In this document: piece by piece, positions 15,170 through 56,324 of the stretch
How the letters are laid out: each line of letters starts with the position of its first letter
Position numbering within the stretch: position 1 is the first letter of the stretch
DNA from: a virus
Length of the DNA: 59,654 nucleotides
Direction: 5' to 3' (one strand)
IMG/VR virus record: IMGVR_UViG_3300048913_000137
Coordinates: 1 to 59,654 of that record
Position numbers and translations under genes: made by a program
Notes under the pieces: generated by a model
What the model saw: the letters and a program-made list of their open reading frames with translations, nothing else
Database searches by the model: none
Told to the model about the DNA's origin: nothing

Positions 15170-15544
15170 TTAGATGTCCTCGTCTTCGTCGGCATCGTCG
15201 GACGAGTCTTCGTCCTGGTTCTGCTCTTCGTCATCGACGACATCTTCGTCCTTGGCCTTCGTGGCCCCGGCCGCCTTCTTGCCCTTGGCGGCGGTCGCCT
15301 TCTTCGAGCCGTCCGGCGCTGCCTTCGACGGGGCCTTGCCCGCTTCGGCGTCGTCGCTGGTGTGGCCCTTGCCGCTCGGCTCTTCGGTCGATTCGTTGAT
15401 CGGCTTGCGGAGTGCGCGGGGGTCGATGGCGGTGATCTGTGCGATCTCGTCTTCGGTGAAGTTGAAGCCCTTGTTCAAGGGCGGCGATACCCGCTTGCCT
15501 TCGCGGATCACGATGACACTGGCGGTAGGAACGCGCTTCGGCAT
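15170..15544 (-). CDS. Hypothetical head-module protein with Lys/Ala-rich tract and acidic C-terminal tail (DEDEDI)
   Basis: 124-aa ORF directly downstream of the capsid gene. Confidence 0.5.
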   Translation of the reverse strand: MPKRVPTASVIVIREGKRVSPPLNKGFNFTEDEIAQITAIDPRALRKPINESTEEPSGKGHTSDDAEAGKAPSKAAPDGSKKATAAKGKKAAGATKAKDEDVVDDEEQNQDEDSSDDADEDEDI

Positions 15545-24435: not shown

Positions 24436-24796
24436 GGACCATCACCGTCATCGAAAGCTCGTCCAGGGCTTCGCCAAGGCTCGCCATCTTGGACAGCAGG
24501 CCCGGCGGCTTCATGGCCGCCAGCGCGTTCTCGATAGCCTCCCGCAACGTCTCGCCGCGAACCTGGATCACCGTCGAGCCATCGGCCCATATTACGCGGT
24601 CGTTGCGCCGGAGCACGACATGCCAGGGATCGTCATCACGCGGGACGTTCGGCAGCTTGCGTGGCGGGTCCTTCTTGAACCAGCCCACCGGCTGATAGCA
24701 ACTGGCGTTGACGCCGAAATGATTCAACTGCGCCCGCAAGTCGGCGGGTATCTTAGGCTGCGACACGGTAGGTCCTCCGTTCATTGTCATTCGCAT
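24422..24796 (-). CDS. Hypothetical protein
   Basis: Internal start (MRMTMNGG) of ORF 24422..24892. The longer form would overlap the SNF2 gene by 140 nt. Confidence 0.4.
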   Translation of the reverse strand: MRMTMNGGPTVSQPKIPADLRAQLNHFGVNASCYQPVGWFKKDPPRKLPNVPRDDDPWHVVLRRNDRVIWADGSTVIQVRGETLREAIENALAAMKPPGLLSKMASLGEALDELSMTVMVRARP

Positions 24797-26393
24797 ACCG
24801 CGCCCTCGCTGCGCGGATATACTTGAACAAGCGTTCCTGCCCGGCACCCTTGTCCTGTAGGCAGTCATAGACGATTTCGTCGGCGGTGCCAACGCACATG
24901 AGATGATGGGATCGCACCACCTGGCGCTGCCCCTGGCGGGCGAGGCGGCCGATCAATTGCTCGTAAAGCTCGCGGCTCCAACACAGGTCGAACCAGGCCA
25001 CGTCATGACCGGGACCCTTCTGCATGTTGAGGCCGTGCGCCGCGCCGCCGGGCTGCATGAACAGCAGCGGAATCTTGCCTGCGTTCCAGTCGGGGATGCA
25101 GCGCCCGGCCTTATCCATGACGGTCGCGCCGGGGAATGCTTTGCGAAGTCGGGCAAGGCTGCTTTTGAACCAGTAGCTCACCATCAACGGCTCGCCCTGC
25201 ATCTCGTCGATCAACTCGCGGAGGGCTTCGATCTTCTCGTCATGCACCGGCACGACGGTCTTCTCTTCGGTATAGACCGCGCCACTCGTCATCTGAAGCA
25301 GCTTATTGAAGAGTGCCGCGCCGTTGACCGCCTCGATCCGCATGTCGTCGAGCTTCAGGATCATGGTCTTCTCGAAGTCGTGATAGCGCGCCATCATGTC
25401 TTCGTTGAGACGGATCGGTCGCTTGACTGGCAACCATTCTTCGACGCCTAGCTCTTCTCGATAATCGGCGGCCTTCATGACCAGGCAGATGTCCGCCATC
25501 TTCGCCGCGATCTTCTGTTCGCTGCCTTTCTTGATAACCCATTTCTTCGCCTGCTTGATCTCGGTGAAGTAGCGTTGCAGAAAATGGGTGACATAGCGGC
25601 CGAACCGGCGTCCGCGATCCAGGAGGAAAATCTGCGCGAAGATGTGCTGGAACGACTCGGCCGCCGGGCTGGCGGTCAAGGTGTGCAGGCGGGTGATCCG
25701 GGGCAGGCACTTCTTCAGCGCCCGATACCGCTTCGTGGTGTAGTCCTTAAACTTCGACGACTCATCGACGATCACGGTGTCATAGGGCCACTTCAGCCCA
25801 TACTCCCGGCCCATGCGCTCCCAAAAAGCGACGAGCCATTCCAGCCGTTCGATGTTGATGATGTGAAGCTGCGCGTCGCTCATGGCCTGCTTCTGGCGCT
25901 GAAGCTCCTTGGCGGCCTGGCGGTAGGGCGCAGCAGCCCGGCGGGCATATCCAGCGGCCACGGCTGGCGTCTCGCCGACTGCACGCTGCCGAGCATACTC
26001 CTGGTCATAGTGGAGCTTGTAGAGCCGCTTGATCTCGTCATCATCGTCTTCTGCGCGGATCAAGCTGTAGTCGATTCCGGCCGCCTGCTTCCACTCCTTG
26101 ATCTCTTCCGGCCAGGTTGCCTTGGCGACGCGGAGCGGAGCGATGACGAGCGCCTTGCCCTCCCATCCCTCTTTGATGAGATCGGCGAGCAGGGTGAGGC
26201 AGATGACCGACTTCCCCATCCCCAAGTCGATGAAGAGTGCGGAGAACGGCGTCTCGTAAAGGAAGCGAACCGCCTTGCGCTGATACTTGTGAAGGTCTTT
26301 GCGCGTGCGGACGACGCCGCCATAGGTCTTCTCATACCAGGCGGCGACATCGAATCGTTCTTCCAGGCGCTCATTATGCAGCATGAAGCTCAA
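24753..26393 (-). CDS. SNF2/DEAD-like helicase
   Basis: DLGMGKS (Walker A), VIVDESSKF (DExx) and C-terminal helicase motifs. Typical partner of VRR-NUC in phage replication modules. Confidence 0.8.
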   Translation of the reverse strand: MSFMLHNERLEERFDVAAWYEKTYGGVVRTRKDLHKYQRKAVRFLYETPFSALFIDLGMGKSVICLTLLADLIKEGWEGKALVIAPLRVAKATWPEEIKEWKQAAGIDYSLIRAEDDDDEIKRLYKLHYDQEYARQRAVGETPAVAAGYARRAAAPYRQAAKELQRQKQAMSDAQLHIINIERLEWLVAFWERMGREYGLKWPYDTVIVDESSKFKDYTTKRYRALKKCLPRITRLHTLTASPAAESFQHIFAQIFLLDRGRRFGRYVTHFLQRYFTEIKQAKKWVIKKGSEQKIAAKMADICLVMKAADYREELGVEEWLPVKRPIRLNEDMMARYHDFEKTMILKLDDMRIEAVNGAALFNKLLQMTSGAVYTEEKTVVPVHDEKIEALRELIDEMQGEPLMVSYWFKSSLARLRKAFPGATVMDKAGRCIPDWNAGKIPLLFMQPGGAAHGLNMQKGPGHDVAWFDLCWSRELYEQLIGRLARQGQRQVVRSHHLMCVGTADEIVYDCLQDKGAGQERLFKYIRAARARYANDNERRTYRVAA

Positions 26394-27511: not shown

Positions 27512-28201
27512 TCAGGACCGGAGCGCAATCAGGAGCTTTGCCAATTCGTCCACGGCTTCGGTGAGGCCCGCCTGCGCGCCGACGAGCCCCTTGCCGTGGT
27601 AGCCGGGATAGACGCGCTTCCGCACCGGCTCGAAGAAGCACTCGTCTCCCATGCCGTCGATCCAGACACACCAGGCGCAATCCATGAGCGGGCTGTTGCC
27701 ACGCTCGGCTTTCAGGAACGCCAGTCGCCAGGTGATCGGCAAGAAGAACGTCGGCCGCGTCTCCGGGTCATCCCACAGGTCAAGCCGCCCCTTGGTGTTC
27801 CAGTAGTTTTGCTTCAGCAGGAAGATCACGACGGGGGCGTGCTTCCGCGCCTGGATCAAAAATTCCTTGGCATGGCTGAAAGGCGGGTTGGTGATGATCG
27901 CATCATACTGGAAACAACCCTCAACGCTCGGCTTCAGGAAGTCCACGCCGGGGTTGCCGTAGCCGGGGAATTCACGGAGATCGCTGGAAGTAACTTCCAT
28001 GCCATGCCATTCGAGCACGCGGCTCAACCGGCCGTCGCCGCACGCCGGTTCCCACACCCGTTTGATAGGATGACGGTTCTCGCCGATGCTTTCGAGCAAG
28101 GGGATGATGCTCTCCGTCGCATCGACCGGAGTCGGATATAGGTCGGCAGGCTTGCGCTCCCACCGCTTATAGGATTCGACGATTGCGTCAGCCATGCTCA
28201 T
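27512..28201 (-). CDS. DNA N6-adenine methyltransferase
   Basis: EPACGDG (SAM motif I) and ITNPPF (NPPF catalytic motif). Start ATGA-coupled at 28201. Confidence 0.75.
   Translation of the reverse strand: MSMADAIVESYKRWERKPADLYPTPVDATESIIPLLESIGENRHPIKRVWEPACGDGRLSRVLEWHGMEVTSSDLREFPGYGNPGVDFLKPSVEGCFQYDAIITNPPFSHAKEFLIQARKHAPVVIFLLKQNYWNTKGRLDLWDDPETRPTFFLPITWRLAFLKAERGNSPLMDCAWCVWIDGMGDECFFEPVRKRVYPGYHGKGLVGAQAGLTEAVDELAKLLIALRS
27987..27997. repeat. Dispersed palindrome copy GAAGTAACTTC
   Basis: In the N6-MTase gene, read as EVTS. Confidence 0.9.
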
Positions 28202-28452
28202 TTGTGAATCTTCCCGTCTCGAATTACAGGGCGGCCCAAGTGGAACCACACCCCCATGTCATAATCAAGCTCGCCCTTGCAGACTAGCTCTTTCTCTTCT
28301 TCCGTCATCGGTCGGCCAGGGCACTCGGTCGGTATCTGACACTCGCCGGTCTTGCACGTCTTGCAGATAGCCAGGCCGAAGTCGCACACCGCACATCGGT
28401 TGGTCTGTCCGCCGCAATTGCAGTCCGCCGGTTGCATGTATTTGTGCTTCAT
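28198..28452 (-). CDS. Cys-rich small protein (probable zinc-binding)
   Basis: 84 aa with 11 Cys, including CNCGG..C..C and C..C..GEC. Confidence 0.5.
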   Translation of the reverse strand: MKHKYMQPADCNCGGQTNRCAVCDFGLAICKTCKTGECQIPTECPGRPMTEEEKELVCKGELDYDMGVWFHLGRPVIRDGKIHK

Positions 28453-28454
28453 CG

Positions 28455-30620
28455 TCAGTCCTTCCGGTATATCTTGCCCTCATGCCCGGCGGCGTTGAGA
28501 GGCATTCCCTTGGCCCACCTGATCTTGCGGATCATCGCCTCGCGCAATGCCGCCAAGGTGTGCTCGTTATCGTTGACGGCTTCTTCACAGATGATTTCGT
28601 CGTGGACGTGCCCGACGATGGTGAAGCCCATCTTGTGCGCGATCAGGAGCCCTTCGCGTAGGATGTCGCGAGCGACGGCCTGGACGATGTTCTCGATGAA
28701 TTTGCCGCCGTGCGAATAGACGCGAACCCAACCGGACCCGTTCTGCTGCTTCCCCATGTAGGAGATCGTGTCCTTCATGGTCACGACTTCCTCGCCGGTA
28801 TCCTTGTCGATATACCGGAAAGGCCGCTTGGTCACGCGGGGCTTCAGATAGTAGATGTTGCGGCCGGACGGCAGATGGCAGACCAGGTAGGGCTTCGCAT
28901 AGCTGAAGCGGATCGGCCCGACTTTGGTGTTGCGATGGTGGAGGATCGTGCTCTTGATCGCGTCTTCCAGCGCATACCACATCTGCGGGATTTCTTTATA
29001 GACGCGGCGGAAAGTCGCCACGCCCCGATGAGCTTCCTTGCGGCTCATCTCGATACCCATGTTCTCGGCGTATCCCCACAGGCCGGTCTTCTTGCCATCC
29101 ATGATGTTGCCGCCGCCAAGGCGGTAGCCCGCACCCAGGGTGGCAGGCTTTGCCATCTTGCGCTGATAGGAAGTTACTTCGGCATAGGGGATGCCATAAA
29201 GCTCGGTCGCAAAATCCTTGTATGCGTCGCGGCCTTCGCGGAAGACGTTCAACAGGCGCTCACATCCAGACACCCAGCCGATCACCACCGACTCGATAGA
29301 GGACAAGTCGCACACCACCAGCTTCTTGTTCTTCTTGGCGCGCACGCTCGACCGCACCAGCCCGGCCAAGGCATCCATCGGCTCCTTCACCATGAAGGCG
29401 AGGCCGTCAGCATCATCTTCGCGGATGAGATCGGTTAGCTGCGTCAGGACGGACAGGTGCGTGCTGTCATCGCCACCCATCCGCATCGTTGTCAGGTTTT
29501 GCGGCTGGAAGCGGCGGCCCGCGAATCGAGCGGTGCGGCTGGCACCGGCAAACTGGAAGACGAACCGCATCCGGTTGCCCTCGCCCATTGCCTTCAACAG
29601 CGCGGCATACTTCGTCGGCGTCGTGCGCGCCTGCTGCTGGCGGAGCTTCAGGCCGGTGACGCAATCGTCAGTCAGCGTCGGGTAAAGCTCGCCCTTCTTC
29701 TTTTTCAACTCGCCGCTGATACGCCCGGCGTTCGCGGTCAAGACCTTCTTCACCGAGTCCTTGCGGAGATCGTCGAAGGGGTAGCCGCGCTCCTTCAGCC
29801 AGGGGAGAAACTGCGGCACCGATCCGGGGTTGAGCAAGCCGGTGAGCTTCCGCATCCGGTTGAGCAGATACTCTTTCCGCTCCAACGCCATCGCATAAGC
29901 ACGCTCGACGAACGTCCGGTCGATGGGGAGCCCACGGTCATTGATCCGCTGGTCCAGCGCATAGAACCGCCACTCGCGCTCGGGGATCGGATACTCGGGC
30001 TTATCGAGCCGCTTCTTGACGGCTTGCTCCGCGATCACGTCCTGGACGTTATACTCGCAAAACTCCGCCCACTCGGCTGGATGTGTCTCGGACGTGAAGC
30101 GGACATGGCTGTTCGTCTTCGTGAGCTTTTGCGGCCCACAGAACATCTTGATTAGCTTCTTGCCAGTGTCGAGCTTCTGCTTCTCAATCGGCAGGCCGCA
30201 TTGGCGCGCGACTTGATCCAGACCGCCGACGAAGCTGTGCATGTAGGACAGAACCATCGTGCAGCGCCAGCGCGACATGACGGGCCAAATGTCGAGCACG
30301 CGGTTGAGGATCGTCCGCTCGAATTGCGCGTTGAATGCCCACAGTTGCACGCGCTCATCCATGAGGGCATCACGGAGATCGCGGGGCATACGGGGGTTGG
30401 CTGTGCGATCCCAATGCAGGACTTCGCCGCCGTCAATCTGGTAGGCGCACATCAGCACTTCGCATGATGGGTGCGCGGAATAGAGATCGAGCCCGACTTG
30501 CTTCAAGTCGAGATCGCAGTAGGTTTCAAAGTCGAAGGCTAGAGTGCGAACGCGCTGCTTCGGCGGAGCATAATCATACTCGCCGAATTTGTCGTCTAAA
30601 CTGCCGCGCCGCAATGCCAT
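28455..30620 (-). CDS. DNA polymerase, family A, with 3'-5' exonuclease domain
   Basis: AFDFETY (Exo I), VVCDLSSIE (motif A), RKMAKPATLGAGYRLG (motif B), VGHVHDEI (motif C). Confidence 0.9.
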   Translation of the reverse strand: MALRRGSLDDKFGEYDYAPPKQRVRTLAFDFETYCDLDLKQVGLDLYSAHPSCEVLMCAYQIDGGEVLHWDRTANPRMPRDLRDALMDERVQLWAFNAQFERTILNRVLDIWPVMSRWRCTMVLSYMHSFVGGLDQVARQCGLPIEKQKLDTGKKLIKMFCGPQKLTKTNSHVRFTSETHPAEWAEFCEYNVQDVIAEQAVKKRLDKPEYPIPEREWRFYALDQRINDRGLPIDRTFVERAYAMALERKEYLLNRMRKLTGLLNPGSVPQFLPWLKERGYPFDDLRKDSVKKVLTANAGRISGELKKKKGELYPTLTDDCVTGLKLRQQQARTTPTKYAALLKAMGEGNRMRFVFQFAGASRTARFAGRRFQPQNLTTMRMGGDDSTHLSVLTQLTDLIREDDADGLAFMVKEPMDALAGLVRSSVRAKKNKKLVVCDLSSIESVVIGWVSGCERLLNVFREGRDAYKDFATELYGIPYAEVTSYQRKMAKPATLGAGYRLGGGNIMDGKKTGLWGYAENMGIEMSRKEAHRGVATFRRVYKEIPQMWYALEDAIKSTILHHRNTKVGPIRFSYAKPYLVCHLPSGRNIYYLKPRVTKRPFRYIDKDTGEEVVTMKDTISYMGKQQNGSGWVRVYSHGGKFIENIVQAVARDILREGLLIAHKMGFTIVGHVHDEIICEEAVNDNEHTLAALREAMIRKIRWAKGMPLNAAGHEGKIYRKD
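29169..29179. repeat. Dispersed palindrome copy GAAGTTACTTC
   Basis: In the polymerase gene, read as EVTS. Confidence 0.9.
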
Positions 30621-30722: not shown

Positions 30723-31541
30723 TTAGATGTCGTCATCGTCATCGTCGTCATCGTCATCATCGCGGCTGCGACGCTTCGGCTTTGCCTTCGCCTTGGATTT
30801 GCGGCGTGCAGGCCGCTCATCCTCATCGTCGTCATCGTCGTCGTCATCGCTGTAGTCGTCGTCATCGTCGTCATCGTCGTCGCGCGAACGCTTCGACTTT
30901 GCCTTCGACTTCGACTTCCGGCGCGGCGTGTCGTCATCGTCCTCATCGAACGAATCGTCATCGTCGTCGGGATCACCGTAATCCTCGAAGGTATCGTCCA
31001 GGTCCTCATCGGACAGACGGCCCTCGCCGAACACTTCATCCTTCTTGACGAATTGGATCGACGACAGACCCGCGTTGACGCGCTTGCCGAATTTGTTGTT
31101 CTGATACCAAGGGCGAATGAGGATGTCTCCCCAATACCCCGGCTGGAACACTTCATCGGCATCCTCCGGCTCCACAACCGAGTTGTCGCGGTTGCGGAGA
31201 GGCGGACGGCGCGACTCGCGGGCCGACACGGTGTAGTGCCCCTCATGCTCGGCCTTGCCCGACTGGTCGCCGTCACGGAGAAACTTCTTGTCGGAGGCGA
31301 GGCTTTTGACCTTGTTCTCCTTCAGAAGCTCTTCGATCCGCTCCTTAATCAAGTCCTTCGCCGCGCGATGGGTCTTCTTGGGCAGGAGCCCGACGACGCC
31401 AAACTTGGCCTCGCCCTGATCGCCATCGCCCTTGTAGGGCTTTTTCAGATGCGGGTAGCTGAATCGGACACCGCTGATACGGATCGTTCCATCCGTATAG
31501 AGGATAGCATTCTTCACCTTCTTCTTTATTTCGCGTGCCAT
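30723..31541 (-). CDS. DUF2815-type single-stranded DNA-binding protein with repeated basic/poly-Asp C-terminal blocks
   Basis: VRFSYPHLKKPYKG...FGVVGLLPKK resembles DUF2815. The C-terminus carries two RRKSK(A/S)KAK.KR + poly-D units and ends DDDDDI. Confidence 0.65.
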   Translation of the reverse strand: MAREIKKKVKNAILYTDGTIRISGVRFSYPHLKKPYKGDGDQGEAKFGVVGLLPKKTHRAAKDLIKERIEELLKENKVKSLASDKKFLRDGDQSGKAEHEGHYTVSARESRRPPLRNRDNSVVEPEDADEVFQPGYWGDILIRPWYQNNKFGKRVNAGLSSIQFVKKDEVFGEGRLSDEDLDDTFEDYGDPDDDDDSFDEDDDDTPRRKSKSKAKSKRSRDDDDDDDDDYSDDDDDDDDEDERPARRKSKAKAKPKRRSRDDDDDDDDDDDI

Positions 31542-31582: not shown

Positions 31583-32971
31583 CTAGATGTCGTCGTCATC
31601 CATGAGATCATAGTTGTCGAAAACATCACCATCCTTGGGCGCGGCAAGACGGGGATCGTCCACCGCCGCCAAGGTCTTTTGCCCTGGGGGTTTCACCGTA
31701 AAGCCACCGTCATCCAGCAGCTTCTTGGCCTTCCCCAAGGTCATCTTCAGCTTCGCATGGAGCGTTCGCTCTAGCTCGGCCGGAGACTTCATTTTGGTGA
31801 CGAAGAGATCAGAACGCTTCAGGCCGTGCGCCATCAGCGACTCGATGATCCAATCTTCGTCCTCCACCAGCTTGCGGCGGGTGCGGCTCTCCACCACCTT
31901 CCACCACAGCAATTCTTCTTCCTTGCTGACGGCGCGATTCAGCAACTCGGCTCGCACCGCGTTGAAGAATGACTCCATCATCTTTTGATACCGAAGTAAC
32001 TTCGAGAGCGCCATCGTCGAAAGCTCGGGCGGCTTCGGCATGTCAGGGAACGGCGACGTGGCAAATTCGTCCAGGATCACATCGTTGGCGGCGTCCATGC
32101 GCTCGCGGGAGATGTGGACCGGCACCACGTCGATAATCATGTCCTTCGCTTCGATGGCGTCGTAATTCTCGAAGACATCCGTCTCTTCGGCAAGGAAGAT
32201 GTAGGCGGCCGGGCATGTCGCTCGCACCTTGCACCACCGGCAACCCTTGGTGCTCGGCGTGCGGGTGAGTTGATCGCGGGGCTTCCAAGACCGACGCCAG
32301 GCGTCCTTCGCTTCTTCGGCGAATTCCAGAAGCTCTTCGCGGGTCATCGTCCAGGAAGTCATACCCCCGGCCACTCGCGGCTGCGCGATGCAGATTTCGA
32401 TGGTCTGGAAGTTGTAGAGCCAATCCCACTCATAGAAGACGCCGAGCGCGTAGATGCGAAGCTGCTTGTTCCCGCGAGCGAACACCGGGTCCTTCCCATA
32501 CTTCAGGTCGATGATCCGCATCCATTGCCAGCGGAAGGCGATGAAGTCGCCAGTGCCGCCTTGGCCGGGGATCGGCGTTAGTGGGGAGATGTCAACGTAG
32601 CCTTCGACGAGATAGTGCTCGCACTCTTCCATCGTCGCCTGGCACCACTCGACATAATCCTCAACATAGTCGAGCATTTCTTCGGTGATCTCAATCTCGA
32701 AGCCGTTGACGATCTCGACGAAGCCAACCCATTTGTCGGGGCGCTCGCCGGTCTTCAGCCACTCTTCGCCACAGCTATGCCCCACGGTGCCTTCGGCCGC
32801 TTCATAGGTGGCGTGATCCTCCGCGAGCACGTTGAGCACCAGGCTCTCTTCGCACGTCATTGTCATCTCGGACGCGGACGGCGAGAAGACCGAGTGGCCG
32901 GTCGCCATCTGCGCCTTGATTTGATCGGGCGTCAAAGGCCCGAGAAGGGCGGGCAGCTTATGCTCGCTCAA
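31583..32971 (-). CDS. PD-(D/E)XK nuclease, DUF2800 / Cas4-like with Fe-S Cys cluster
   Basis: IIDLKYGK nuclease motif and CRWCKVRATC (C-x2-C-x5-C). Standard neighbour of DUF2815 and PolA. Ends MDDDDI. Confidence 0.7.
   Translation of the reverse strand: MSEHKLPALLGPLTPDQIKAQMATGHSVFSPSASEMTMTCEESLVLNVLAEDHATYEAAEGTVGHSCGEEWLKTGERPDKWVGFVEIVNGFEIEITEEMLDYVEDYVEWCQATMEECEHYLVEGYVDISPLTPIPGQGGTGDFIAFRWQWMRIIDLKYGKDPVFARGNKQLRIYALGVFYEWDWLYNFQTIEICIAQPRVAGGMTSWTMTREELLEFAEEAKDAWRRSWKPRDQLTRTPSTKGCRWCKVRATCPAAYIFLAEETDVFENYDAIEAKDMIIDVVPVHISRERMDAANDVILDEFATSPFPDMPKPPELSTMALSKLLRYQKMMESFFNAVRAELLNRAVSKEEELLWWKVVESRTRRKLVEDEDWIIESLMAHGLKRSDLFVTKMKSPAELERTLHAKLKMTLGKAKKLLDDGGFTVKPPGQKTLAAVDDPRLAAPKDGDVFDNYDLMDDDDI
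31993..32003. repeat. Dispersed palindrome copy GAAGTAACTTC
   Basis: In the DUF2800 nuclease gene, read as KLL. Confidence 0.9.
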
Positions 32972-33507
32972 AGGTCATCATCCTCATCATAGGCGGGCGG
33001 AACGCCAGGGGCGACACACCCTTGGCTCATGCAGTAGCAACCGTGCTCCCGCATACCGATGCAGTCTTCACAGACATAGGGAACATTAACGGAACGGATG
33101 AGTCCGGTCAAGTCTTCGAGCGCCGTTTCCAGTTTACCGATGGTCTTTACGGACTGGCGGAGATAGTAGGTTTCGATCTCCAAGTAGATCGCCTGCATGT
33201 GTGGATCGTTGAGCCCCACAAGCTGATAGCCGTTCATGGCGGCAATCGTCGGCGTCCGGCCGGTGCCGAGCGCCAGGTTCGGCCGACACAAGCCGCTGTA
33301 GGGCGGGCGGCCCTCCCAGGTGTGTTGTCCGACTTCGGCGTAGTAGGTGCCGCGCTGGATATGACTGCGCTTCGGCGAGCAATAGAATCCACGCTTGCCC
33401 GCCTCGCGGTGGAGCACCTTGCTTATATCGAGTTTGAATTCGGCATCGGCCAGGGGGTCCGGCTTCCACATGATCGTCTTAGGGGCGTCGGTCATAGTCG
33501 TCACCAT
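32968..33507 (-). CDS. Hypothetical protein with C-terminal Cys cluster and acidic tail (YDEDDDL)
   Basis: 179-aa ORF in the replication operon. Confidence 0.5.
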   Translation of the reverse strand: MVTTMTDAPKTIMWKPDPLADAEFKLDISKVLHREAGKRGFYCSPKRSHIQRGTYYAEVGQHTWEGRPPYSGLCRPNLALGTGRTPTIAAMNGYQLVGLNDPHMQAIYLEIETYYLRQSVKTIGKLETALEDLTGLIRSVNVPYVCEDCIGMREHGCYCMSQGCVAPGVPPAYDEDDDL

Positions 33508-33730
33508 GATAAATGATTTCGGTGCAAGCGCGGCATTGCGACACCCATCCGTCTTGCGACCAACAGATTTCGGTCTGATCGTGGTGCTGGCAATGGCCGC
33601 ACTCGCAACGGTGGACTGGATAGCAGCAGGAAGGACAGGCTTCGACCGTCAGATATTTCCACCAGGCGAACAGGAGCATCAGCCCCAGCATACCCAAGAT
33701 CACATAGATCGGAACCGCCCAACTACCCAT
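33479..33730 (-). CDS. Small membrane-anchored Cys/His-rich protein
   Basis: 83 aa. N-terminal TM helix followed by CPSCCYPVHRCECGHCQHH...C..C. Confidence 0.5.
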   Translation of the reverse strand: MGSWAVPIYVILGMLGLMLLFAWWKYLTVEACPSCCYPVHRCECGHCQHHDQTEICWSQDGWVSQCRACTEIIYHGDDYDRRP

Positions 33731-34711
33731 TTATTCCTCCTGTTTGTCCTCATCGTCAAACCGATCACGCGCCGTGTCGGGATCACGATTAAGCATGGAA
33801 GTTACTTCCGGCCAACGCTTGCCGGTTTCCATCAGCAGTCGATACGGCTCTTTCTCGGCCGCGATGTCGCGATCCCAAAGCTCATGATCGACGAGAAGCC
33901 TGATCTCTTCTTCCACCAGCGCGTCGATCACGGACGGCTGCATGGAGTCAAGCTCCCAGGACGACTTGGTGTTGTAGGTGGCGCAGTAGGTCCGATAGCG
34001 GCTGTCCGTCTCCTTGGCGGGATTCGGCGGCGGCGCATAGCGATTGATTTGCTCCATCGTGAGCGCGATCCGGTTGACTTCGATCCCTTCGATCTCGCGG
34101 GACAGCAGGGCCAGGCGCTCGGCGATGTTCTCGGTCATCTGCGTGCCGGAGGGGTCATGATCCCCCAGGTGGATGACGGTGCAGGATTGACCGGCGTCGG
34201 CAAAGCCCGCCAGCCGATTCGCTGCGTCATACATCTCGGACGCCGAGACGTAGCCCTTGCAGGCGAAGTAGGGAACGCGCCAACGACGGCAGGGACGTTC
34301 GATGACGCCGACAAGCGCCTCTTTCTCGATCCACACTTCGACGTAGTTGGGCTGGTTGACCCAGGGGTCATTCTTGAAGTGGCGGCCCCAATCCAGGATG
34401 AATTCGGCCGGGCTGTTCGGATCGCCGGGGTCGCCCCACATCGGCGTCGGAGCCAGGTTGCGCCCGCGATCCTCAATGGCATCCCAATCGACCAAACCGG
34501 CGAGGCGAGCGTCGTTGAGGATTTCCCCCAGGCGCTTATACTCGGTCTGTTTGTTGACGAGCCAATTCCGCTGCACAAACTGGTAGTATAGCTGGCGGAG
34601 GGTGAGCTTGTAGCCCTGCGCCTGGTAGTCGGCGATCAGGGTGTTGGCTTTCCGAATGATCGCCCGCGTTCCAGCGCGGAAGTCTTTCGGGACAAAACAT
34701 TCGGTAGGCAT
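33731..34711 (-). CDS. Spo11 / topoisomerase VI subunit A-like protein (5Y-CAP + Toprim; 'Topo mini-A'-like)
   Basis: LTLRQLYYQFV (catalytic-Tyr winged-helix motif), VEVWIEKEALVGV (Toprim Glu, EKEA motif), VIHLGDHDPSG (DxDPxG). 326 aa, with no Top6B partner nearby. Confidence 0.6.
   Translation of the reverse strand: MPTECFVPKDFRAGTRAIIRKANTLIADYQAQGYKLTLRQLYYQFVQRNWLVNKQTEYKRLGEILNDARLAGLVDWDAIEDRGRNLAPTPMWGDPGDPNSPAEFILDWGRHFKNDPWVNQPNYVEVWIEKEALVGVIERPCRRWRVPYFACKGYVSASEMYDAANRLAGFADAGQSCTVIHLGDHDPSGTQMTENIAERLALLSREIEGIEVNRIALTMEQINRYAPPPNPAKETDSRYRTYCATYNTKSSWELDSMQPSVIDALVEEEIRLLVDHELWDRDIAAEKEPYRLLMETGKRWPEVTSMLNRDPDTARDRFDDEDKQEE
33798..33808. repeat. Dispersed palindrome copy GAAGTTACTTC
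   Basis: In the Spo11-like gene, read as EVTS. Confidence 0.9.
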
Positions 34712-34748
34712 ACGGCCCTCCTTTTTCAGTGTGTCGCCTGGCTACCCA

Positions 34749-34787
34749 GGAACGAACCCCGCCTGCCGTGGGAATAACAGGCGGGGC
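34749..34787 (-). terminator. Hairpin CCCCGCCTG...CAGGCGGGG between two minus-strand genes
   Basis: 9-bp perfect stem seen in the 34712-34811 spacer; weak T-run. Confidence 0.35.
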
Positions 34788-34811: not shown

Positions 34812-35186
34812 TCAGACTTCATCGTCATCGTCGTCGGCGTCGTCGTCATCGCCTTCGAGCAGCGTCTCGGCGAATTCATAGGCGGCGTCGAAAAGCTCGG
34901 GCTGCGTCAGAAGCTCGGCGAGATCGGCACAGCCGACGCTCTTCAGATACTTCCGGCACGCGGGCTTGTCTTCCTTGGCGGCCTTGCGGAAGATCGCGCC
35001 GGTTTCGTCGGCGTCATGCTCCGGCTCGACGGCCTTCTTCTTGGCGGGTGCCTTCTTGGCTGCGGCCTTCTCGGCCGGAGCCTTGTCGGTCGCCGCCTTG
35101 GCGGTGGAACCAGTGCCGTTCTTTTCGATGGCCTGGCGCAACGCGACGACTTCCTTCGTCAGCGTCTCGATTTTCTCTTCGAGCAT
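34812..35186 (-). CDS. Hypothetical protein, coiled-coil N-terminus, Lys/Ala-rich tract, poly-acidic C-terminus (DDDDDEV)
   Basis: Start MLEEK with GGAGGA 4 nt upstream (alternative 35198). First gene of the leftward replication operon. Confidence 0.5.
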   Translation of the reverse strand: MLEEKIETLTKEVVALRQAIEKNGTGSTAKAATDKAPAEKAAAKKAPAKKKAVEPEHDADETGAIFRKAAKEDKPACRKYLKSVGCADLAELLTQPELFDAAYEFAETLLEGDDDDADDDDDEV

Positions 35187-35226
35187 TCGATCCTCCATAT
35201 GGATGTTTCCCGATTGGGAGGCCCAG

Positions 35227-35255
35227 CTTCTAGGGATCGCGGTTTTTGCTGTCAA
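35227..35255 (-). promoter_or_regulatory. Candidate leftward promoter TTGACA-N17-TAGAAG
   Basis: Minus strand reads TTGACAgcaaaaaccgcgatcccTAGAAG, ~30 nt upstream of the 34812 gene start. Hexamers are identical to the 46537 promoter. Confidence 0.4.
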
Positions 35256-35328
35256 CAACAAAAATAACTTGTGTCAGATAGGGTCTTATTGCTACGCCCA
35301 CGGCACGACCGATCCGCCGGGGTAAATC

Positions 35329-35625
35329 ATGACCGAGAAATTTCAGTGGCCTATGCCTTCATGGCTAGGCGATCTACCAGATATAGATGCTAAGGTCGCC
35401 AAGACCCGCATCCTGTTGTGTCTCGCCAGCGCATATTGCGGTGAGCGGGGCAACCTTTCCCGACTCGCGCGGCGCATGAATGTGCCCGAGCAGACCGTCC
35501 ATAGTGCGGCGGATCGCGGCCAGGTGTCGCCCGAGATGGCGATTGCCCTGGAAACCTTGCTCGGCCGCGAGCACTTTCCCCGAGAGCTTTTCCGCCCTGA
35601 TCTCTTCACTCTTCCGGCGGAGTAA
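35329..35625 (+). CDS. Cro/YdaS-like helix-turn-helix regulator
   Basis: 98 aa. GNLSRLARRMNVPEQTVHSAADRGQVSPEMA looks like an HTH. Divergent from the replication operon. Confidence 0.5.
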   Translation: MTEKFQWPMPSWLGDLPDIDAKVAKTRILLCLASAYCGERGNLSRLARRMNVPEQTVHSAADRGQVSPEMAIALETLLGREHFPRELFRPDLFTLPAE

Positions 35626-35631
35626 TCGCGG

Positions 35632-38103
35632 GTGGTCGAATATCTCAAGAAATACGGCGAGTCGGTCCTCGAAAACGGCTACGCAATCTGTTTCATCCGG
35701 CCGGGCGAAAAGCGTCCGTTCGGCAAGGAGTGGGAAGAGAAGGTTCACGGCCCGAAGCTGCTGGCTAAATTCGTCGAGTCGGGCAAGGGTGACTTCGGCG
35801 TCGGAGTGAAGACCGCCAAGACCCCGCTGGTGGACATCGACTGCTATGACGCCGATCTCGTCGAGCACATGCGGGCATTCGTCGAAGACTTGTGCGGTGA
35901 GACGCTAGAGCGCACCGGCCTGGCTCCGAAACTCGGCATGGTCTATCGCGCCAAGAAGGCTTTCCCCAAAACGCAGTCCAAGGTCTTCATCGACGATGAA
36001 GGCCGCCAGGTGAAGCTCGAAGTGTTGGCGGACGGCCAGCAATTCGTGGCGCTGCACATCCACCCTGACACCGGCAAGCCCTATCGCTGGAAGAACAAGA
36101 AGCACGTCGGCAATACGCCTCGCGCCGATCTCCCCGAGATCACCCGCGACGACGCGCTAGAGATCGTCGCCGAATTCGAGCGGGAGGCTCGGGATCGCGG
36201 ATGGGTGGAGAAGAGCACTGTCAAGCGGATGGAGGGCAAGTCCTCCGGCAGCTATGATTGGGATGATCCCTTCATCACCGACAAGCAGAAGGTCGAGATC
36301 ACCACCGACGATCTACGCGCCAAGCTGCAAATGGTTCCTAACTGTGACGATTATGATACTTGGTTTCATGTCGGCATGGCGCTGCACCACCAATTCGACG
36401 GCTCGGACGAAGGTCTGACGCTGTGGCATGAGTGGTCTGCGGACGCTGCGAATTACGATCAAGACGCGCTCGACGAGAAGTGGCCCACCTTCGCTATCGA
36501 AGGCAAGAAGCGCGAGCCGCTGACTGCCCGTTTCATTCTGAAGCAGGCGATAGCTGAAGAAGAGCGCGTCGCCGTCGAAGAGGCGGAGGAAGTGCGCGAG
36601 CAGCTTGCCGACGCCTCCGATCTCCCGTCCGTCCGCAAGGTGTGCGACCGGATCAAGCACATCGCCTTCGATTCCATCATGCGCGAGCAGATGGTCAAGC
36701 TGGTGCAGGACAAGATCAAGAAGGTCGGCGGCACCACCATGTCGATCTCGTCGATCCGTGCGCTGTGCCGCTATGAGAATCCCGAGAACCACTCGACGCC
36801 GCCCTGGCTGACGCACTTCGTCTATGTCCAGCAGGACGAAACCTTCTACTCGACGCGCACGCGGCAAGTCCTGTCCACCAAGGCTTTCGACCAGTCGTTC
36901 GGGCGCTACATGATGACGAAGAAGGATCGGCTGGAAGGTCGCTCGGCTCCCGAGCATACCGCTTCGCACGTCGCCCTCTACCGCTATCAGATTCCCACCG
37001 TCGCCAACCGCATGTATCTCCCGCAATTCGAGGATGAGATCGTGTCGGTCAACGGCCTGGATTACGTCAACAGCTATAGCCAAGACTCGATCCCCGAGAC
37101 GCCGGAAAAGCTCAACCGGAAAGGCCGCCGGGCGGTCGAAGTTGTGCTGCGCCACATGGAGCACCTGTTCGCCGATGAGCGTGATCGGAAGTTACTTCTT
37201 AGCTGGCTCGCACATATCGTGCAGACCGGCGGCCGGTCCAACTGGTCCCCGGTGATCCAGGGCGTGCAGGGCGACGGCAAGACCTTCTTCCACCTGTTGA
37301 TGGGGGCTGTGCTCGGCGGGGCCAACGTCAGGACGATCAACGGCGACATGCTCGCCGAGAAATACACGCCTTGGGCCGAAGGCTCGCAATTCTGCTTCAT
37401 TGAGGAAGTCCGGCTGCACGGCAAGGATCGCTATGCGATCATCAACAAAGTGAAGCCCTACATCACCAACGTCATGGCTCCGGTTCGGCGCATGAACGTC
37501 GATGTCTATGACGTGCTCAACACCGTGAGCTATATGCTGACGACGAACCATAAGGACGGTGTGCCGGTCGATGCGAACGACACCCGCTTCTTCCCGATGT
37601 TCTCGCGGTGGCAGATTAAGGCCAAGCTGGACCGCTTCAATGCGGCTCATCCTGACTATTACGTCGAGCTTCACGCTGTCTTGGAGCACGCTGGCGAGCT
37701 TCGCCGCTGGCTGCTGGACTATGAGCTTCACGAAGACTTCAACCCCGAGCGCCGTGCGCCAATCTCCACCGCCAAGGCCGAGATGATCTATCTCAACCAG
37801 ACCGATGAAGAGGAAGCCCTGGAAACCGCCCTGGACGAGTCGGAAGACCCTGGCTTCAGCCGGTCGATCCTGGATAGCGCCCTGGTGGCCGATGCGATGA
37901 TCGAATATGGCGCTGCGGCACCATACGGCCGGGCGCTGAAGATGCTCCTATCCGAGCACGGCTTCACCTTCCTGGGGCAAGTCAAGGTCGATGGGAAGAA
38001 CCGCAAATTCTGGACCCAGGAGCCCGAGCGGTTCCTTGGATCGAACGGCAAAGTCAATGCTATCGCGGTTCGCACTCACCTGGAAGACGACGATCCGATC
38101 TAA
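35632..38103 (+). CDS. Bifunctional primase-polymerase (prim-pol) / D5-P4-type helicase
   Basis: GTG start. N-terminal prim-pol block (ICFIRPGEKRPFGKEW...DIDCYD), PriCT-like DTWFHVGMALHH, Walker A GVQGDGKT. Ends EDDDPI. Confidence 0.8.
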   Translation: MVEYLKKYGESVLENGYAICFIRPGEKRPFGKEWEEKVHGPKLLAKFVESGKGDFGVGVKTAKTPLVDIDCYDADLVEHMRAFVEDLCGETLERTGLAPKLGMVYRAKKAFPKTQSKVFIDDEGRQVKLEVLADGQQFVALHIHPDTGKPYRWKNKKHVGNTPRADLPEITRDDALEIVAEFEREARDRGWVEKSTVKRMEGKSSGSYDWDDPFITDKQKVEITTDDLRAKLQMVPNCDDYDTWFHVGMALHHQFDGSDEGLTLWHEWSADAANYDQDALDEKWPTFAIEGKKREPLTARFILKQAIAEEERVAVEEAEEVREQLADASDLPSVRKVCDRIKHIAFDSIMREQMVKLVQDKIKKVGGTTMSISSIRALCRYENPENHSTPPWLTHFVYVQQDETFYSTRTRQVLSTKAFDQSFGRYMMTKKDRLEGRSAPEHTASHVALYRYQIPTVANRMYLPQFEDEIVSVNGLDYVNSYSQDSIPETPEKLNRKGRRAVEVVLRHMEHLFADERDRKLLLSWLAHIVQTGGRSNWSPVIQGVQGDGKTFFHLLMGAVLGGANVRTINGDMLAEKYTPWAEGSQFCFIEEVRLHGKDRYAIINKVKPYITNVMAPVRRMNVDVYDVLNTVSYMLTTNHKDGVPVDANDTRFFPMFSRWQIKAKLDRFNAAHPDYYVELHAVLEHAGELRRWLLDYELHEDFNPERRAPISTAKAEMIYLNQTDEEEALETALDESEDPGFSRSILDSALVADAMIEYGAAAPYGRALKMLLSEHGFTFLGQVKVDGKNRKFWTQEPERFLGSNGKVNAIAVRTHLEDDDPI
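37188..37198. repeat. Dispersed palindrome copy GAAGTTACTTC
   Basis: In the primase gene (+), read as KLL. Confidence 0.9.
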
Positions 38104-46597: not shown

Positions 46598-46894
46598 ATG
46601 GCGACGAAATCTGAATCCGCTTTGAGCTTCCCGGCACAGGTCAAGGCCCTCGCCATCGGGGAGAGCACCAGCAAGACCAAGCGGGTGCCGGTAGGCGGCA
46701 AGGAGGCCCGCGACCTGGCCGGTGTCCTGGCCAAGCTCCGCAACGTCTGCAATCAGGCCGTGAGCAAGGTCCGCACCGAAACCGGAAGTAACTTCCGCGT
46801 CGAAAGCGGCATCTGCCTGACCGATGACAAGGCCGCACATCTTGCGACTGTGGCCGTCACCCGCTTCGAGGACGAAGACGCGGTTGACATCTGA
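46598..46894 (+). CDS. Hypothetical protein, first gene of the rightward operon (ends EDEDAVDI)
   Basis: 98-aa ORF, AGAGGG upstream. Confidence 0.55.
   Translation: MATKSESALSFPAQVKALAIGESTSKTKRVPVGGKEARDLAGVLAKLRNVCNQAVSKVRTETGSNFRVESGICLTDDKAAHLATVAVTRFEDEDAVDI
46785..46795. repeat. Dispersed palindrome copy GAAGTAACTTC
   Basis: In CDS 46598..46894 (+), read as GSNF. Confidence 0.9.
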
Positions 46895-54674: not shown

Positions 54675-54685
54675 GAAGTTACTTC
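54675..54685. repeat. Dispersed palindrome copy GAAGTTACTTC
   Basis: Intergenic, 7 nt upstream of a TTGACA hexamer. Confidence 0.9.
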
Positions 54686-54721: not shown

Positions 54722-54757
54722 CTGATTCGTCACAAGCGAGGAAAGGTGACAGGACCA

Positions 54758-55045
54758 ATGGCTAAGAAACCGAAACGCGAGTTGGATGTCGATGACGATC
54801 CCCAATTCCAGACCACCCGCGAGGGCGCGAACAGCGTTCTTCGGATGCACCTTGAACGCGCGCTGCGCCTAGAGGAAGAGAAGAAGGGCATCGCAGATGA
54901 CATCAAGGACATCTTCACCGAGTTGAAGGCGTCCGGTTATGACGGCAAGATGTCTCGTCGCATGATGGCTGAAATGAAGATGAAGCCTGAAGACCGCGAA
55001 GAGATGTTGATGCTGGAACAAACCTATCGCGATGAAGTTTTCTGA
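54758..55045 (+). CDS. GapR-like nucleoid-associated protein (DUF2312)
   Basis: LRMHLERALRLEEEKKGIADDIKDIFTELKASGYDGKMSRRMMAEMKMKPEDREEMLMLEQTY matches my memory of DUF2312/GapR. Confidence 0.7.
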   Translation: MAKKPKRELDVDDDPQFQTTREGANSVLRMHLERALRLEEEKKGIADDIKDIFTELKASGYDGKMSRRMMAEMKMKPEDREEMLMLEQTYRDEVF

Positions 55046-55082
55046 CCCATCAATCCGCGAAACCGTGAAAAGGAAATTCGAC

Positions 55083-56324
55083 ATGGCTAAGACCCCGAAG
55101 AAGACTGCGATGGCGATCCCGTCGTCGAAGGTTGACATCAAGCTCACCGCTGGTTCGGTCGAGCCTGCGATGAAGGCCGCCGAAGCGAAGAGCACCAAGC
55201 TCTACCGCGTGCCGGTTGCGTCGATCAAGACGATCCCCGGCTTCAACGTCCGCGTCCAGTCGGCCGACTATATCGCACACCGCGACATGATCGCCGATTC
55301 GATCCGCACCAATGGCTTCGACCAGACCAAGCCGCTCGCCGGTTACGTCGCCAAGGAAGGCGATAAGAACGTCATCTATGTGACGGACGGCCACACCCGA
55401 CTCGATGCGGTCGAGAAGCTGAACGCCGACGACACCGACGCGGTGATCCAGACCCTCCCGGTCCTGGTGCATCCGGCCGATAAATCGCTGACCGACCTGA
55501 CCGTGGCGCTGCACACCAGCAACACCGGCCGCCCGCTGACGCCCTTCGAGCTTGGCGTCGTCGTCAAGCGTCTCATGAAGGATGAAGGCGCGGACAAGGC
55601 GGAGATCGCGAGCCGCCTGGCCGTGACCCCGCGCTATCTCGACGACGTGCTGCTGCTCGTCAACGGCCCGAAGGAAGTGCGGACTGCCGTGCTCGAAGGC
55701 CAGGTGTCTTCGACGCTCGCGATCCAGGAGCTTCGGAAGGACCCGGAAAAGGCGGTCGAGAAGATCACCGCTGCCGTGGCCAAGTCGGGCGGCTCCAAGG
55801 TCACGAAGAAGGCGCTCGGCCCCAAGATGCAGAAGGTGAAGTCCACCGTCAGCATCGCGACCGGCACCGACATGAAGGAGATCGTCAAGGCGGTCGCCGC
55901 CCTGGTCCGCAAGGCGATCCCTGCCTCCACGCCGGAGGACGAGGACGCGATCAAGGAAGCCCTGGTCGATGGCACCATCAACCTGGTGATCGAAGTCCCG
56001 GCTCCCGAGAAGCCCGCCGCCAAGCCGAAGGCGAAGCCTGCTGCCAAGAAGGCCGCTGCGAAGAAGGCTCCGGCGAAGAAGGCGGCCGAGCCCGCTGCCG
56101 ACAAGCCCGAGAAGGCCCCGGCCAAAAAGAAGGGCAGCGCCAAGCCGAAGGCCGAGAAGCCGCCGGTCGAGGAAGACGACGACAACCTGACGGCGGAAGA
56201 TGACGATGATCTCGGCATCGACGGCGCGGAAGTTGCTTCCGATGGCGAGGACGACGAGATCGCGATCATCCCTCCGGCCGTGAAAAACGGCGAGGGTGTC
56301 GATGACGACGCCGACGAAATCTAA
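55083..56324 (+). CDS. ParB/Srx-domain protein fused to a histone H1-like Lys/Ala/Pro tract and an acidic tail
   Basis: VASIKTIPGFNVR...VTDGHTRLDAV (ParB N-terminal domain); AAKPKAKPAAKKAAAKKAPAKKAA...KKKGSAKPKAEKP; ends DDDADEI. Confidence 0.7.
   Translation: MAKTPKKTAMAIPSSKVDIKLTAGSVEPAMKAAEAKSTKLYRVPVASIKTIPGFNVRVQSADYIAHRDMIADSIRTNGFDQTKPLAGYVAKEGDKNVIYVTDGHTRLDAVEKLNADDTDAVIQTLPVLVHPADKSLTDLTVALHTSNTGRPLTPFELGVVVKRLMKDEGADKAEIASRLAVTPRYLDDVLLLVNGPKEVRTAVLEGQVSSTLAIQELRKDPEKAVEKITAAVAKSGGSKVTKKALGPKMQKVKSTVSIATGTDMKEIVKAVAALVRKAIPASTPEDEDAIKEALVDGTINLVIEVPAPEKPAAKPKAKPAAKKAAAKKAPAKKAAEPAADKPEKAPAKKKGSAKPKAEKPPVEEDDDNLTAEDDDDLGIDGAEVASDGEDDEIAIIPPAVKNGEGVDDDADEI
56229..56239. repeat. One-mismatch variant GAAGTTgCTTC
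   Basis: In the ParB-like gene, read as EVAS. Confidence 0.6.

Follow-up and report, generated by a model that had tools for sequence, protein, structure and literature searches.

Here we report on a gene of the viral record IMGVR_UViG_3300048913_000137, analysed as one stretch of 59,654 nucleotides (hereafter the window). The gene, located at 33731..34711 on the minus strand, encodes a protein of 326 amino acids that is firmly assigned to Topo Mini-A, the stand-alone viral relatives of subunit A of the type IIB topoisomerases. In our overall interpretation, held with considerable confidence, Mini-A is probably a dimeric, tyrosine- and Mg2+-dependent DNA cleavage-religation enzyme, its gene is an optional constituent of the replication operon, and it is not the factor on which a palindrome dispersed through the same genome depends. 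The family has already been described and comprises thousands of members; the window gene is one more of them and displays no new architecture. More unusual than Mini-A is the dispersed palindrome of this genome, which goes together with a pair of genes for a ParB/KorB-like and a GapR-like protein.

Topo Mini-A was defined by Takahashi, Da Cunha, Forterre et al. (NAR Genom Bioinform 2019/2020, PMC7671362) as virus-encoded homologues of type IIB topoisomerase A subunits, about 300 amino acids long, whose 5Y-CAP domain is missing its first half and which are not accompanied by a B subunit. Their motifs are RxxY/FY, the Toprim glutamate and DxDxxG, and a C-terminal xWELDAL box sets them apart from Topo VI as well as from Topo VIII (PMC7671362). 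The window protein, with a predicted arrangement of a truncated winged-helix 5Y-CAP domain, a Toprim domain and a helical C-terminal region, shares the approximate length, the 5Y-CAP truncation, RxxYY, the Toprim glutamate, DxDxxG and a WELD box, and is likewise a viral gene product with no B subunit encoded nearby. In accordance with the truncation, the catalytic tyrosine is found at residue 43, versus 103-106 in archaeal Top6A. Nothing essential distinguishes it from the subfamily, apart from the T2BI box that reads SWELDSM and not xWELDAL, and from the circumstance that in the clade of the window the gene is demonstrably optional and changes its position.

The assignment was supported by similarity searches. 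The protein matched PHROG 6247, annotated as “DNA topoisomerase”, with E = 1.3e-98 over residues 4-305, and tblastn revealed homologues with 36-49% identity in 84 phage records, many of which are named DNA topoisomerase by RefSeq; with the phage proteins so named, the window protein shares 39-49% identity. Among these were Chi-like Salmonella phages, Xylella phage Salvo and Rhodobacter phage RcRudolph; the proteins of the Chi-like phages SPN19 and BP12C showed 42% identity (E ~1e-65), in line with the remark of Takahashi et al. (PMC7671362), citing the Chi-like group, that Salmonella-infecting viruses encode Mini-A. The family is large: one database yielded >8000 matches, and a second one 7230 clusters at 50% identity. 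Viral origin of the window itself is apparent from its synteny with the terminase, portal, capsid, tail and lysis genes of the Erythrobacter siphophage vB_EliS-R22L (hereafter R22L). Together, the PHROG match, the phage homologues, the signature motifs and Top6A as the best, though weak, fold match bear out the proposal of the initial annotation that this is a stand-alone Top6A/Spo11-like “Topo mini-A”. Pfam gave no match even at E <= 1, and an NCBIfam search returned one spurious weak match and nothing else.

Translation confirmed that the minus strand is coding over the whole open reading frame (ORF), the plus strand reading being nonsense, and the three motif blocks predicted earlier were recovered in the same order and at the same residues. 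The catalytic tyrosine block LTLRQLYYQFV (residues 36-46; 34574..34606, minus strand) has the form R39-x-x-Y42-Y43 and so fits the RxxY/FY rule that applies to Mini-A and to Topo VI; it is followed by the Toprim glutamate block VEVWIEKEALVGV (residues 124-136; 34304..34342, minus strand), which contains the metal-site residue E129, and by the Toprim DxDxxG metal site VIHLGDHDPSG (residues 179-189; 34145..34177, minus strand) with D184 and D186. A fourth motif, beyond those noticed initially, is WELD at residues 252-255 (33947..33958, minus strand), which corresponds to the Mini-A-specific T2BI box of xWELDAL type.

To place these residues in the context of the family, 62 Mini-A homologues with 50-88% identity to the window protein were aligned. 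Invariant positions were R39, Y43, E129, K130, D184, H185, D186, G189 and the four residues W252-E253-L254-D255, the last two positions of the T2BI box being variable. The alignment thus upholds both aspartates of the metal site and narrows two of the original motif readings: of the tyrosine pair Y42/Y43 only Y43 is invariant, Y42 being conserved in about 90% of sequences, and of the glutamates in the block E129-E131 only E129 is invariant. Structures of Methanosarcina mazei Top6 identified R102, Y106, E202 and D254/D256 as the catalytic set and E342 as the clasp, or fourth acidic, residue. R39, Y43, E129, D184/D186 and E253 of Mini-A are collinear with these and similarly spaced, and on this alignment E253 is the predicted counterpart of E342.

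Structural prediction points in the same direction. The AlphaFold2 model of Mini-A was obtained with pLDDT 91.8 and pTM 0.83, and the best fold match of the whole model in the PDB, as found with Foldseek, was M. mazei Top6A (9o0g_C), aligned over 314 columns and both domains with probability 0.99. For a separate model of the Toprim half (residues 115-306), the highest query TM-score, 0.51, was again that of Top6A. Several results weigh against the Top6A relationship and the activity deduced from it. The whole-model match is weak (E = 4.6e-3, TM-score 0.32), although a difference in how the two domains are hinged would lead one to expect such a TM-score. The Top6A match of the Toprim half had E = 1.1e-2 and ranked 11th, generic Rossmann-like folds scoring better by E-value. 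Neither phmmer nor a profile of 62 family sequences, searched against PDB sequences, gave any match, Top6A and Spo11 structures included, and no Pfam match links Mini-A to these proteins. Finally, the literature consulted, including reviews up to December 2024, reports no biochemical activity for any Mini-A. It should be added that a Foldseek search of BFVD returned generic Toprim primases and noise only. The literature and the residue pattern speak for the deeper relationship to Top6A, which the predicted folds corroborate only weakly.

In comparison with Top6A (M. mazei 9o0g, M. jannaschii 1D3Y) and Spo11, Mini-A shares the predicted succession of a tyrosine-bearing winged helix and a Toprim domain, with R, Y, E, DxD and the clasp glutamate all collinear. 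It differs in an N terminus shorter by about 60 residues, namely the Top6B-binding part, in the lack of a GHKL/transducer partner and in a sequence similarity below the detection level of HMMER; moreover, nothing points to strand passage or programmed double-strand breaks by Mini-A. Topo VIII, the plasmid-borne type IIB enzyme, resembles Mini-A in being encoded by mobile elements and in the same 5Y-CAP truncation, but has a B-type ATPase, either fused to it or encoded next to it, as well as an RVELNAM box, neither of which occurs in Mini-A.

The claim that no Top6B-like ATPase gene accompanies Mini-A was sustained: 20 otherwise unannotated window proteins gave no match to the Pfam GHKL/HATPase models, and for the other large window proteins, R22L has orthologues with structural or replication annotations. 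Of 60 non-redundant Mini-A loci, at most seven had any one neighbouring gene family in common, and there is consequently no sign of a “Mini-B”. A topoisomerase VI-type A2B2 holoenzyme was rejected on two grounds, no GHKL partner being found among the 20 proteins scanned and the B-binding N-terminal segment of 5Y-CAP being absent.

Since there is no ATPase or B subunit, ATP-gated strand passage is unlikely. The analogy with Top6A and Spo11 makes a dimeric, tyrosine- and Mg2+-dependent enzyme that cleaves and religates DNA the most likely interpretation of Mini-A, and the most economical reading would be that it cleaves and religates, or breaks, replication intermediates that are bent or supercoiled, without the need for ATP. 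We infer cleavage, religation and dimerisation from the same analogy: the protein would act as a Toprim-mediated homodimer with composite active sites, in which Tyr43, positioned by Arg39 on the winged helix of one protomer, would attack DNA at the E129/D184/D186 Mg2+ site of the partner and yield a resealable 5'-phosphotyrosyl intermediate. Glu253 of the WELD box may clasp Arg39 and Tyr43 in an auto-inhibited state until the geometry of the DNA, i.e. its bend, is right. Recognition would concern bent or supercoiled DNA and replication intermediates, not a sequence, and the gene would serve as an accessory, gained and lost, of the early replication/recombination operon.

Mini-A is an optional and mobile accessory gene in the clade of the window, as follows from its absence from close relatives and its relocation in another. 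R22L (complete, 56,415 bp) is gene-for-gene syntenic with the window, with 40-73% amino acid identity, and Sphingomonas phage Carli (complete, 57,382 bp) is syntenic as well. No Mini-A was detected in R22L, either by tblastn or by a profile search of the six-frame translation with the --max setting, nor in Carli, even by profile search of its six-frame translation. The slot occupied in the window contained no Mini-A in all six polA-seeded metagenomic loci (L079-L084), and in a further locus, L086, Mini-A was found in a different slot, beyond the primase. The clade thus offers natural plus/minus pairs for experiments. Since the family is very large (7230 clusters, as above) and is related to the enzyme starting meiotic recombination, any tractable member is of some value.

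Two other functions for Mini-A were weighed against cleavage-religation, both of which we regard as improbable. The first, proposed for skuldviruses of Asgard archaea (bioRxiv 10.1101/2021.07.29.453957), is that of a replication initiator or nickase, which would open the genome for rolling-circle or recombination-dependent replication. That the neighbours of Mini-A in the replication operon include a Cas4-like exonuclease and a DUF2815 protein is consistent with this, and RcRudolph carries the gene in a similar replication module; however, close syntenic relatives that lack the gene are able to replicate, a prim-pol/helicase and polA are encoded by the phage itself, and in the Chi-like phage SPN19 and in Salvo the gene is placed among nucleotide-metabolism genes. 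The second, to which we attach an equally low probability, is a Toprim nuclease that does not reseal, or a selfish, homing-like gene, directed for example against host or competitor DNA. The sporadic distribution, the insertion slot that varies among close relatives, the missing ATPase partner and the existence of dimeric Toprim nucleases related to Top6A (JetD, GajA) would all fit, but the Tyr-Arg pair and the clasp glutamate are strictly conserved across the 62 diverse homologues, which argues for covalent tyrosine chemistry. Furthermore, 40-50% identity across phages of very different hosts would be unusually high for a homing endonuclease. The Toprim defence nucleases JetD/MksG, GajA and OLD were also considered as such and rejected, with no PADLOC match at E <= 0.1 and the conserved catalytic tyrosine as a difference.

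The palindrome GAAGT-N-ACTTC is present in 26 copies in the 59.6-kb window versus 0.03 expected, and usually extends to 13 bp as (G/C)GAAGTNACTTC(C/G). Between the first copy at 364 and the last at 54675 (others being, for example, at 2261, 30623, 33798 and 52737), successive copies follow each other at distances of 0.8-5.4 kb; those within genes fall in all three reading frames, and 9 of the 26 lie at gene boundaries, which is an enrichment (P = 5e-4). A role as hairpin or terminator was ruled out, the arms being 5-6 bp around one central base and the intragenic copies occupying all frames. A literature search on the motif strings returned nothing relevant. One copy, GAAGTTACTTC, is indeed located within the 3' end of the Mini-A gene itself (33798..33808, plus strand), as noticed initially. 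Given 26 copies in 59.6 kb, at least one would fall by chance within a 981-bp gene with P = 0.35, and its presence there is therefore unremarkable.

Mini-A and the palindrome turned out to be uncoupled in both directions when their co-occurrence, proposed initially as a check, was followed across related phages. On the one hand, R22L has 25 copies of GAAGTNACTTC, Carli has 30 copies of the sister motif GGAAA-YSR-TTTCC (GGAAAYSRTTTCC), and L079-L084 have kept the motif but have no Mini-A at the slot used in the window; the palindrome therefore does not depend on Mini-A. On the other hand, 56 Mini-A loci from viral contigs were checked for dispersed palindromes, and in about 49 of them none of any kind was found. 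The palindrome of the window recurred in only one of these loci (L001), whose Mini-A is 75% identical, while five related loci with a 46% identical Mini-A carried the sister motif GGAAAT-S-ATTTCC and another (L049) an AT-rich dispersed palindrome. One consideration on the opposite side is that Mini-A may make facultative use of palindromic sites where a phage has both.

The uncoupling redirects attention from Mini-A to another pair of genes as partners of the 13-bp palindrome with its 25-30 copies per genome. The best candidate reader is a ParB/KorB-like protein of 430 amino acids (55032..56324, plus strand), encoded immediately downstream of a GapR-like DNA-binding protein of 99 amino acids (54746..55045, plus strand). 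The former matched phrog_1033 with E = 6.7e-45; Pfam HTH_ParB (21.9 bits versus a cut-off of 22.6) and Pfam KorB fell just below their curated thresholds, and TIGR00180 (4e-7) was also below its cut-off. Its GxxRxxA ParB box is invariant at G120, R123 and A126. The GapR-like protein matched Pfam PF10073 with E = 1.2e-17 and NCBIfam GapR at 7.5e-10, below the cut-off. No ParA was found among the window proteins scanned.

We consider it fairly probable that the palindrome is read by the ParB/KorB-like protein, possibly together with the GapR-like one, as loading sites for a CTP-dependent clamp to which Mini-A would be unrelated. The model is KorB at the dispersed OB operators of RK2, or the sites of Noc, and the function would be silencing or organising the phage DNA. 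Four genes, for the ParB-like, the GapR-like, a 508-amino-acid and a 182-amino-acid protein, are common to the two palindrome-bearing lineages, the ParB-like gene being the main one, and the GapR-like/ParB-like pair is kept in R22L, Carli and most of the metagenomic relatives collected with the ParB-like protein as seed, three of whose loci gave no GapR-like tblastn match. Within the loci seeded with Mini-A, the presence of a ParB-like gene predicts palindromes with Fisher P = 2e-7. The 6-1-6 layout of the 13-bp site is the same as that of the KorB operator TTTAGCGGCTAAA. Moreover, besides the sites at gene boundaries, one copy (54675..54685, plus strand) lies just upstream of the GapR-like/ParB-like operon, within the short gap there.

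The variant of the palindrome also covaries with the identity class of the ParB-like protein. Where the latter is at least 48% identical to that of the window, all loci carry GAAGTNACTTC, the short AT-rich locus L067 excepted. On the contig IMGVR_UViG_3300022924_000019 (L068 and L087), with a 45% identical protein, 19 copies of mixed GAAAT/GAAGT type were found, mostly the hybrid GAAAT-S-ACTTC; a contig with a 41% identical protein has eight copies of GAGTNACTC (GAGT-N-ACTC being listed among the sister motifs), the 39% identical protein of Carli goes with its 30 copies of GGAAAYSRTTTCC, and at 33% identity all loci carry GAAATNATTTC. The predicted recognition helix of the helix-turn-helix (HTH) domain differs by motif class, T-x-RYLDD versus T-x-RHIDN. 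It was also observed that the hybrid site is the asymmetric GGAAAT-S-ACTTCC, which mixes half-sites of the other lineages; this contig resembles an intermediate stage in a shift of site specificity.

Against this reading, it should be noted that the evidence is one of co-occurrence, that the ParB-seeded loci contain the ParB-like gene by construction, that the clade also shares the GapR-like gene, the 182-amino-acid protein and a methyltransferase, and that the Pfam matches are sub-threshold. The link is furthermore not universal, since the first 50 kb of the temperate Burkholderia phage AH2 (L100, NC_018283.1), which has a 40% identical ParB-like gene, show no obvious dispersed palindrome; L037 and L067 likewise have the gene and no evident dispersed palindrome. 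The methyltransferase (27512..28249) was considered as an alternative reader and may still be one, although contigs with its 38-43% identical homologues lack the GAAGT motif.

KorB of RK2 and Noc are orphan ParB-family CTPase clamps, to which the phage ParB-like protein, as candidate reader of the palindrome, is likened. The resemblance lies in the ParB-like protein itself, for which the proteins scanned included no ParA, in a 13-bp site of the 6-1-6 type like OB, and in many dispersed copies, some of them at promoters or gene boundaries. Plasmid RK2 has a dozen dispersed OB sites. The phage system differs in its 25-30 sites per genome of 57-60 kb, mostly within genes, and in its GapR-like partner.

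A compromise between the two proteins would make Mini-A an enzyme independent of ATP and of a B subunit, which senses DNA geometry, breaks and reseals DNA, and acts preferentially on DNA bent or overtwisted at the ParB/GapR-like sites, with the palindromes as facultative targets; for example, Spo11-like breaks could be passed to the Cas4-like exonuclease and the DUF2815 protein and lead to recombination-dependent replication. We judge this to be unlikely. Least probable of all is that Mini-A is itself the sequence-specific reader or cutter of the palindrome (GGAAGTNACTTCC), a link which the initial annotation had flagged as pure inference: a predicted dimer would suit a palindromic site, and a copy occurs at the equivalent place of the Mini-A homologue in L085, where its frame is not the same, and just upstream of Mini-A in L086, but R22L, Carli, L079-L084, the occurrence of dispersed palindromes in only 7 of 56 Mini-A loci and the covariation with the ParB-like gene contradict it.

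Returning to Mini-A as an optional gene of the replication operon, its immediate surroundings are as follows. It is preceded by a strong ribosome-binding site, AAGGAGG (34717..34723, minus strand), with a spacer of 5 nt to the ATG. In the 100-bp spacer upstream of the gene, a GC-rich hairpin with a 9-bp stem and a 12-nt loop (34757..34786, minus strand) is followed by TTCGTTCC; a simple terminator scan missed it and it was found on reading the sequence. It may represent a weak terminator or attenuator, or mark where an inserted cassette begins or ends. At the other end, the Mini-A stop codon adjoins a small Cys/His-rich ORF of 83 amino acids (33479..33730, minus strand) that contains CPSCCYPVHRCECGHCQHH; among the relatives, this ORF was found only in the L001/L085 contig, where Mini-A has the same slot.

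The placement of Mini-A in a replication operon was borne out, as the description is a fair one for the densely packed minus-strand run of helicase, polA, DUF2815 and DUF2800 exonuclease genes to which it belongs. This run comprises a DEAD-box helicase (24753..26393), the methyltransferase-like gene mentioned above, the family A polymerase polA (28455..30620), a DUF2815-like gene (30723..31541), a DUF2800/Cas4-like exonuclease (31583..32971), two small ORFs, Mini-A and a Lys/Ala-rich protein of 149 amino acids (34812..35261). It is divergent from the HTH gene and the prim-pol/helicase on the plus strand (35329..38103).

It was also observed that 8 of the 69 predicted proteins end in an acidic C-terminal tail capped by one hydrophobic residue (…DDDDI, …DEDDDL, …EDDDPI, …DDADEI). 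Their genes are situated at 15170..15544, 30723..31541, 31583..32971, 32968..33507 and 34812..35261 on the minus strand and at 35632..38103, 46598..46894 and 55032..56324 on the plus strand; five of the eight proteins belong to the replication block, and Mini-A is without such a hydrophobic tip. These tails look like a shared docking peptide of the kind known from single-stranded DNA-binding protein and T7 gp2.5. Finally, in the DUF2815-like protein encoded at 30723..31541 on the minus strand, a Lys/Ser/Arg-rich repeat (RRKSKSKAKSKRSRDDDDDDDDD) occurs twice, each time ahead of a long poly-Asp run, and the opposite strand of its gene harbours a long spurious ORF.

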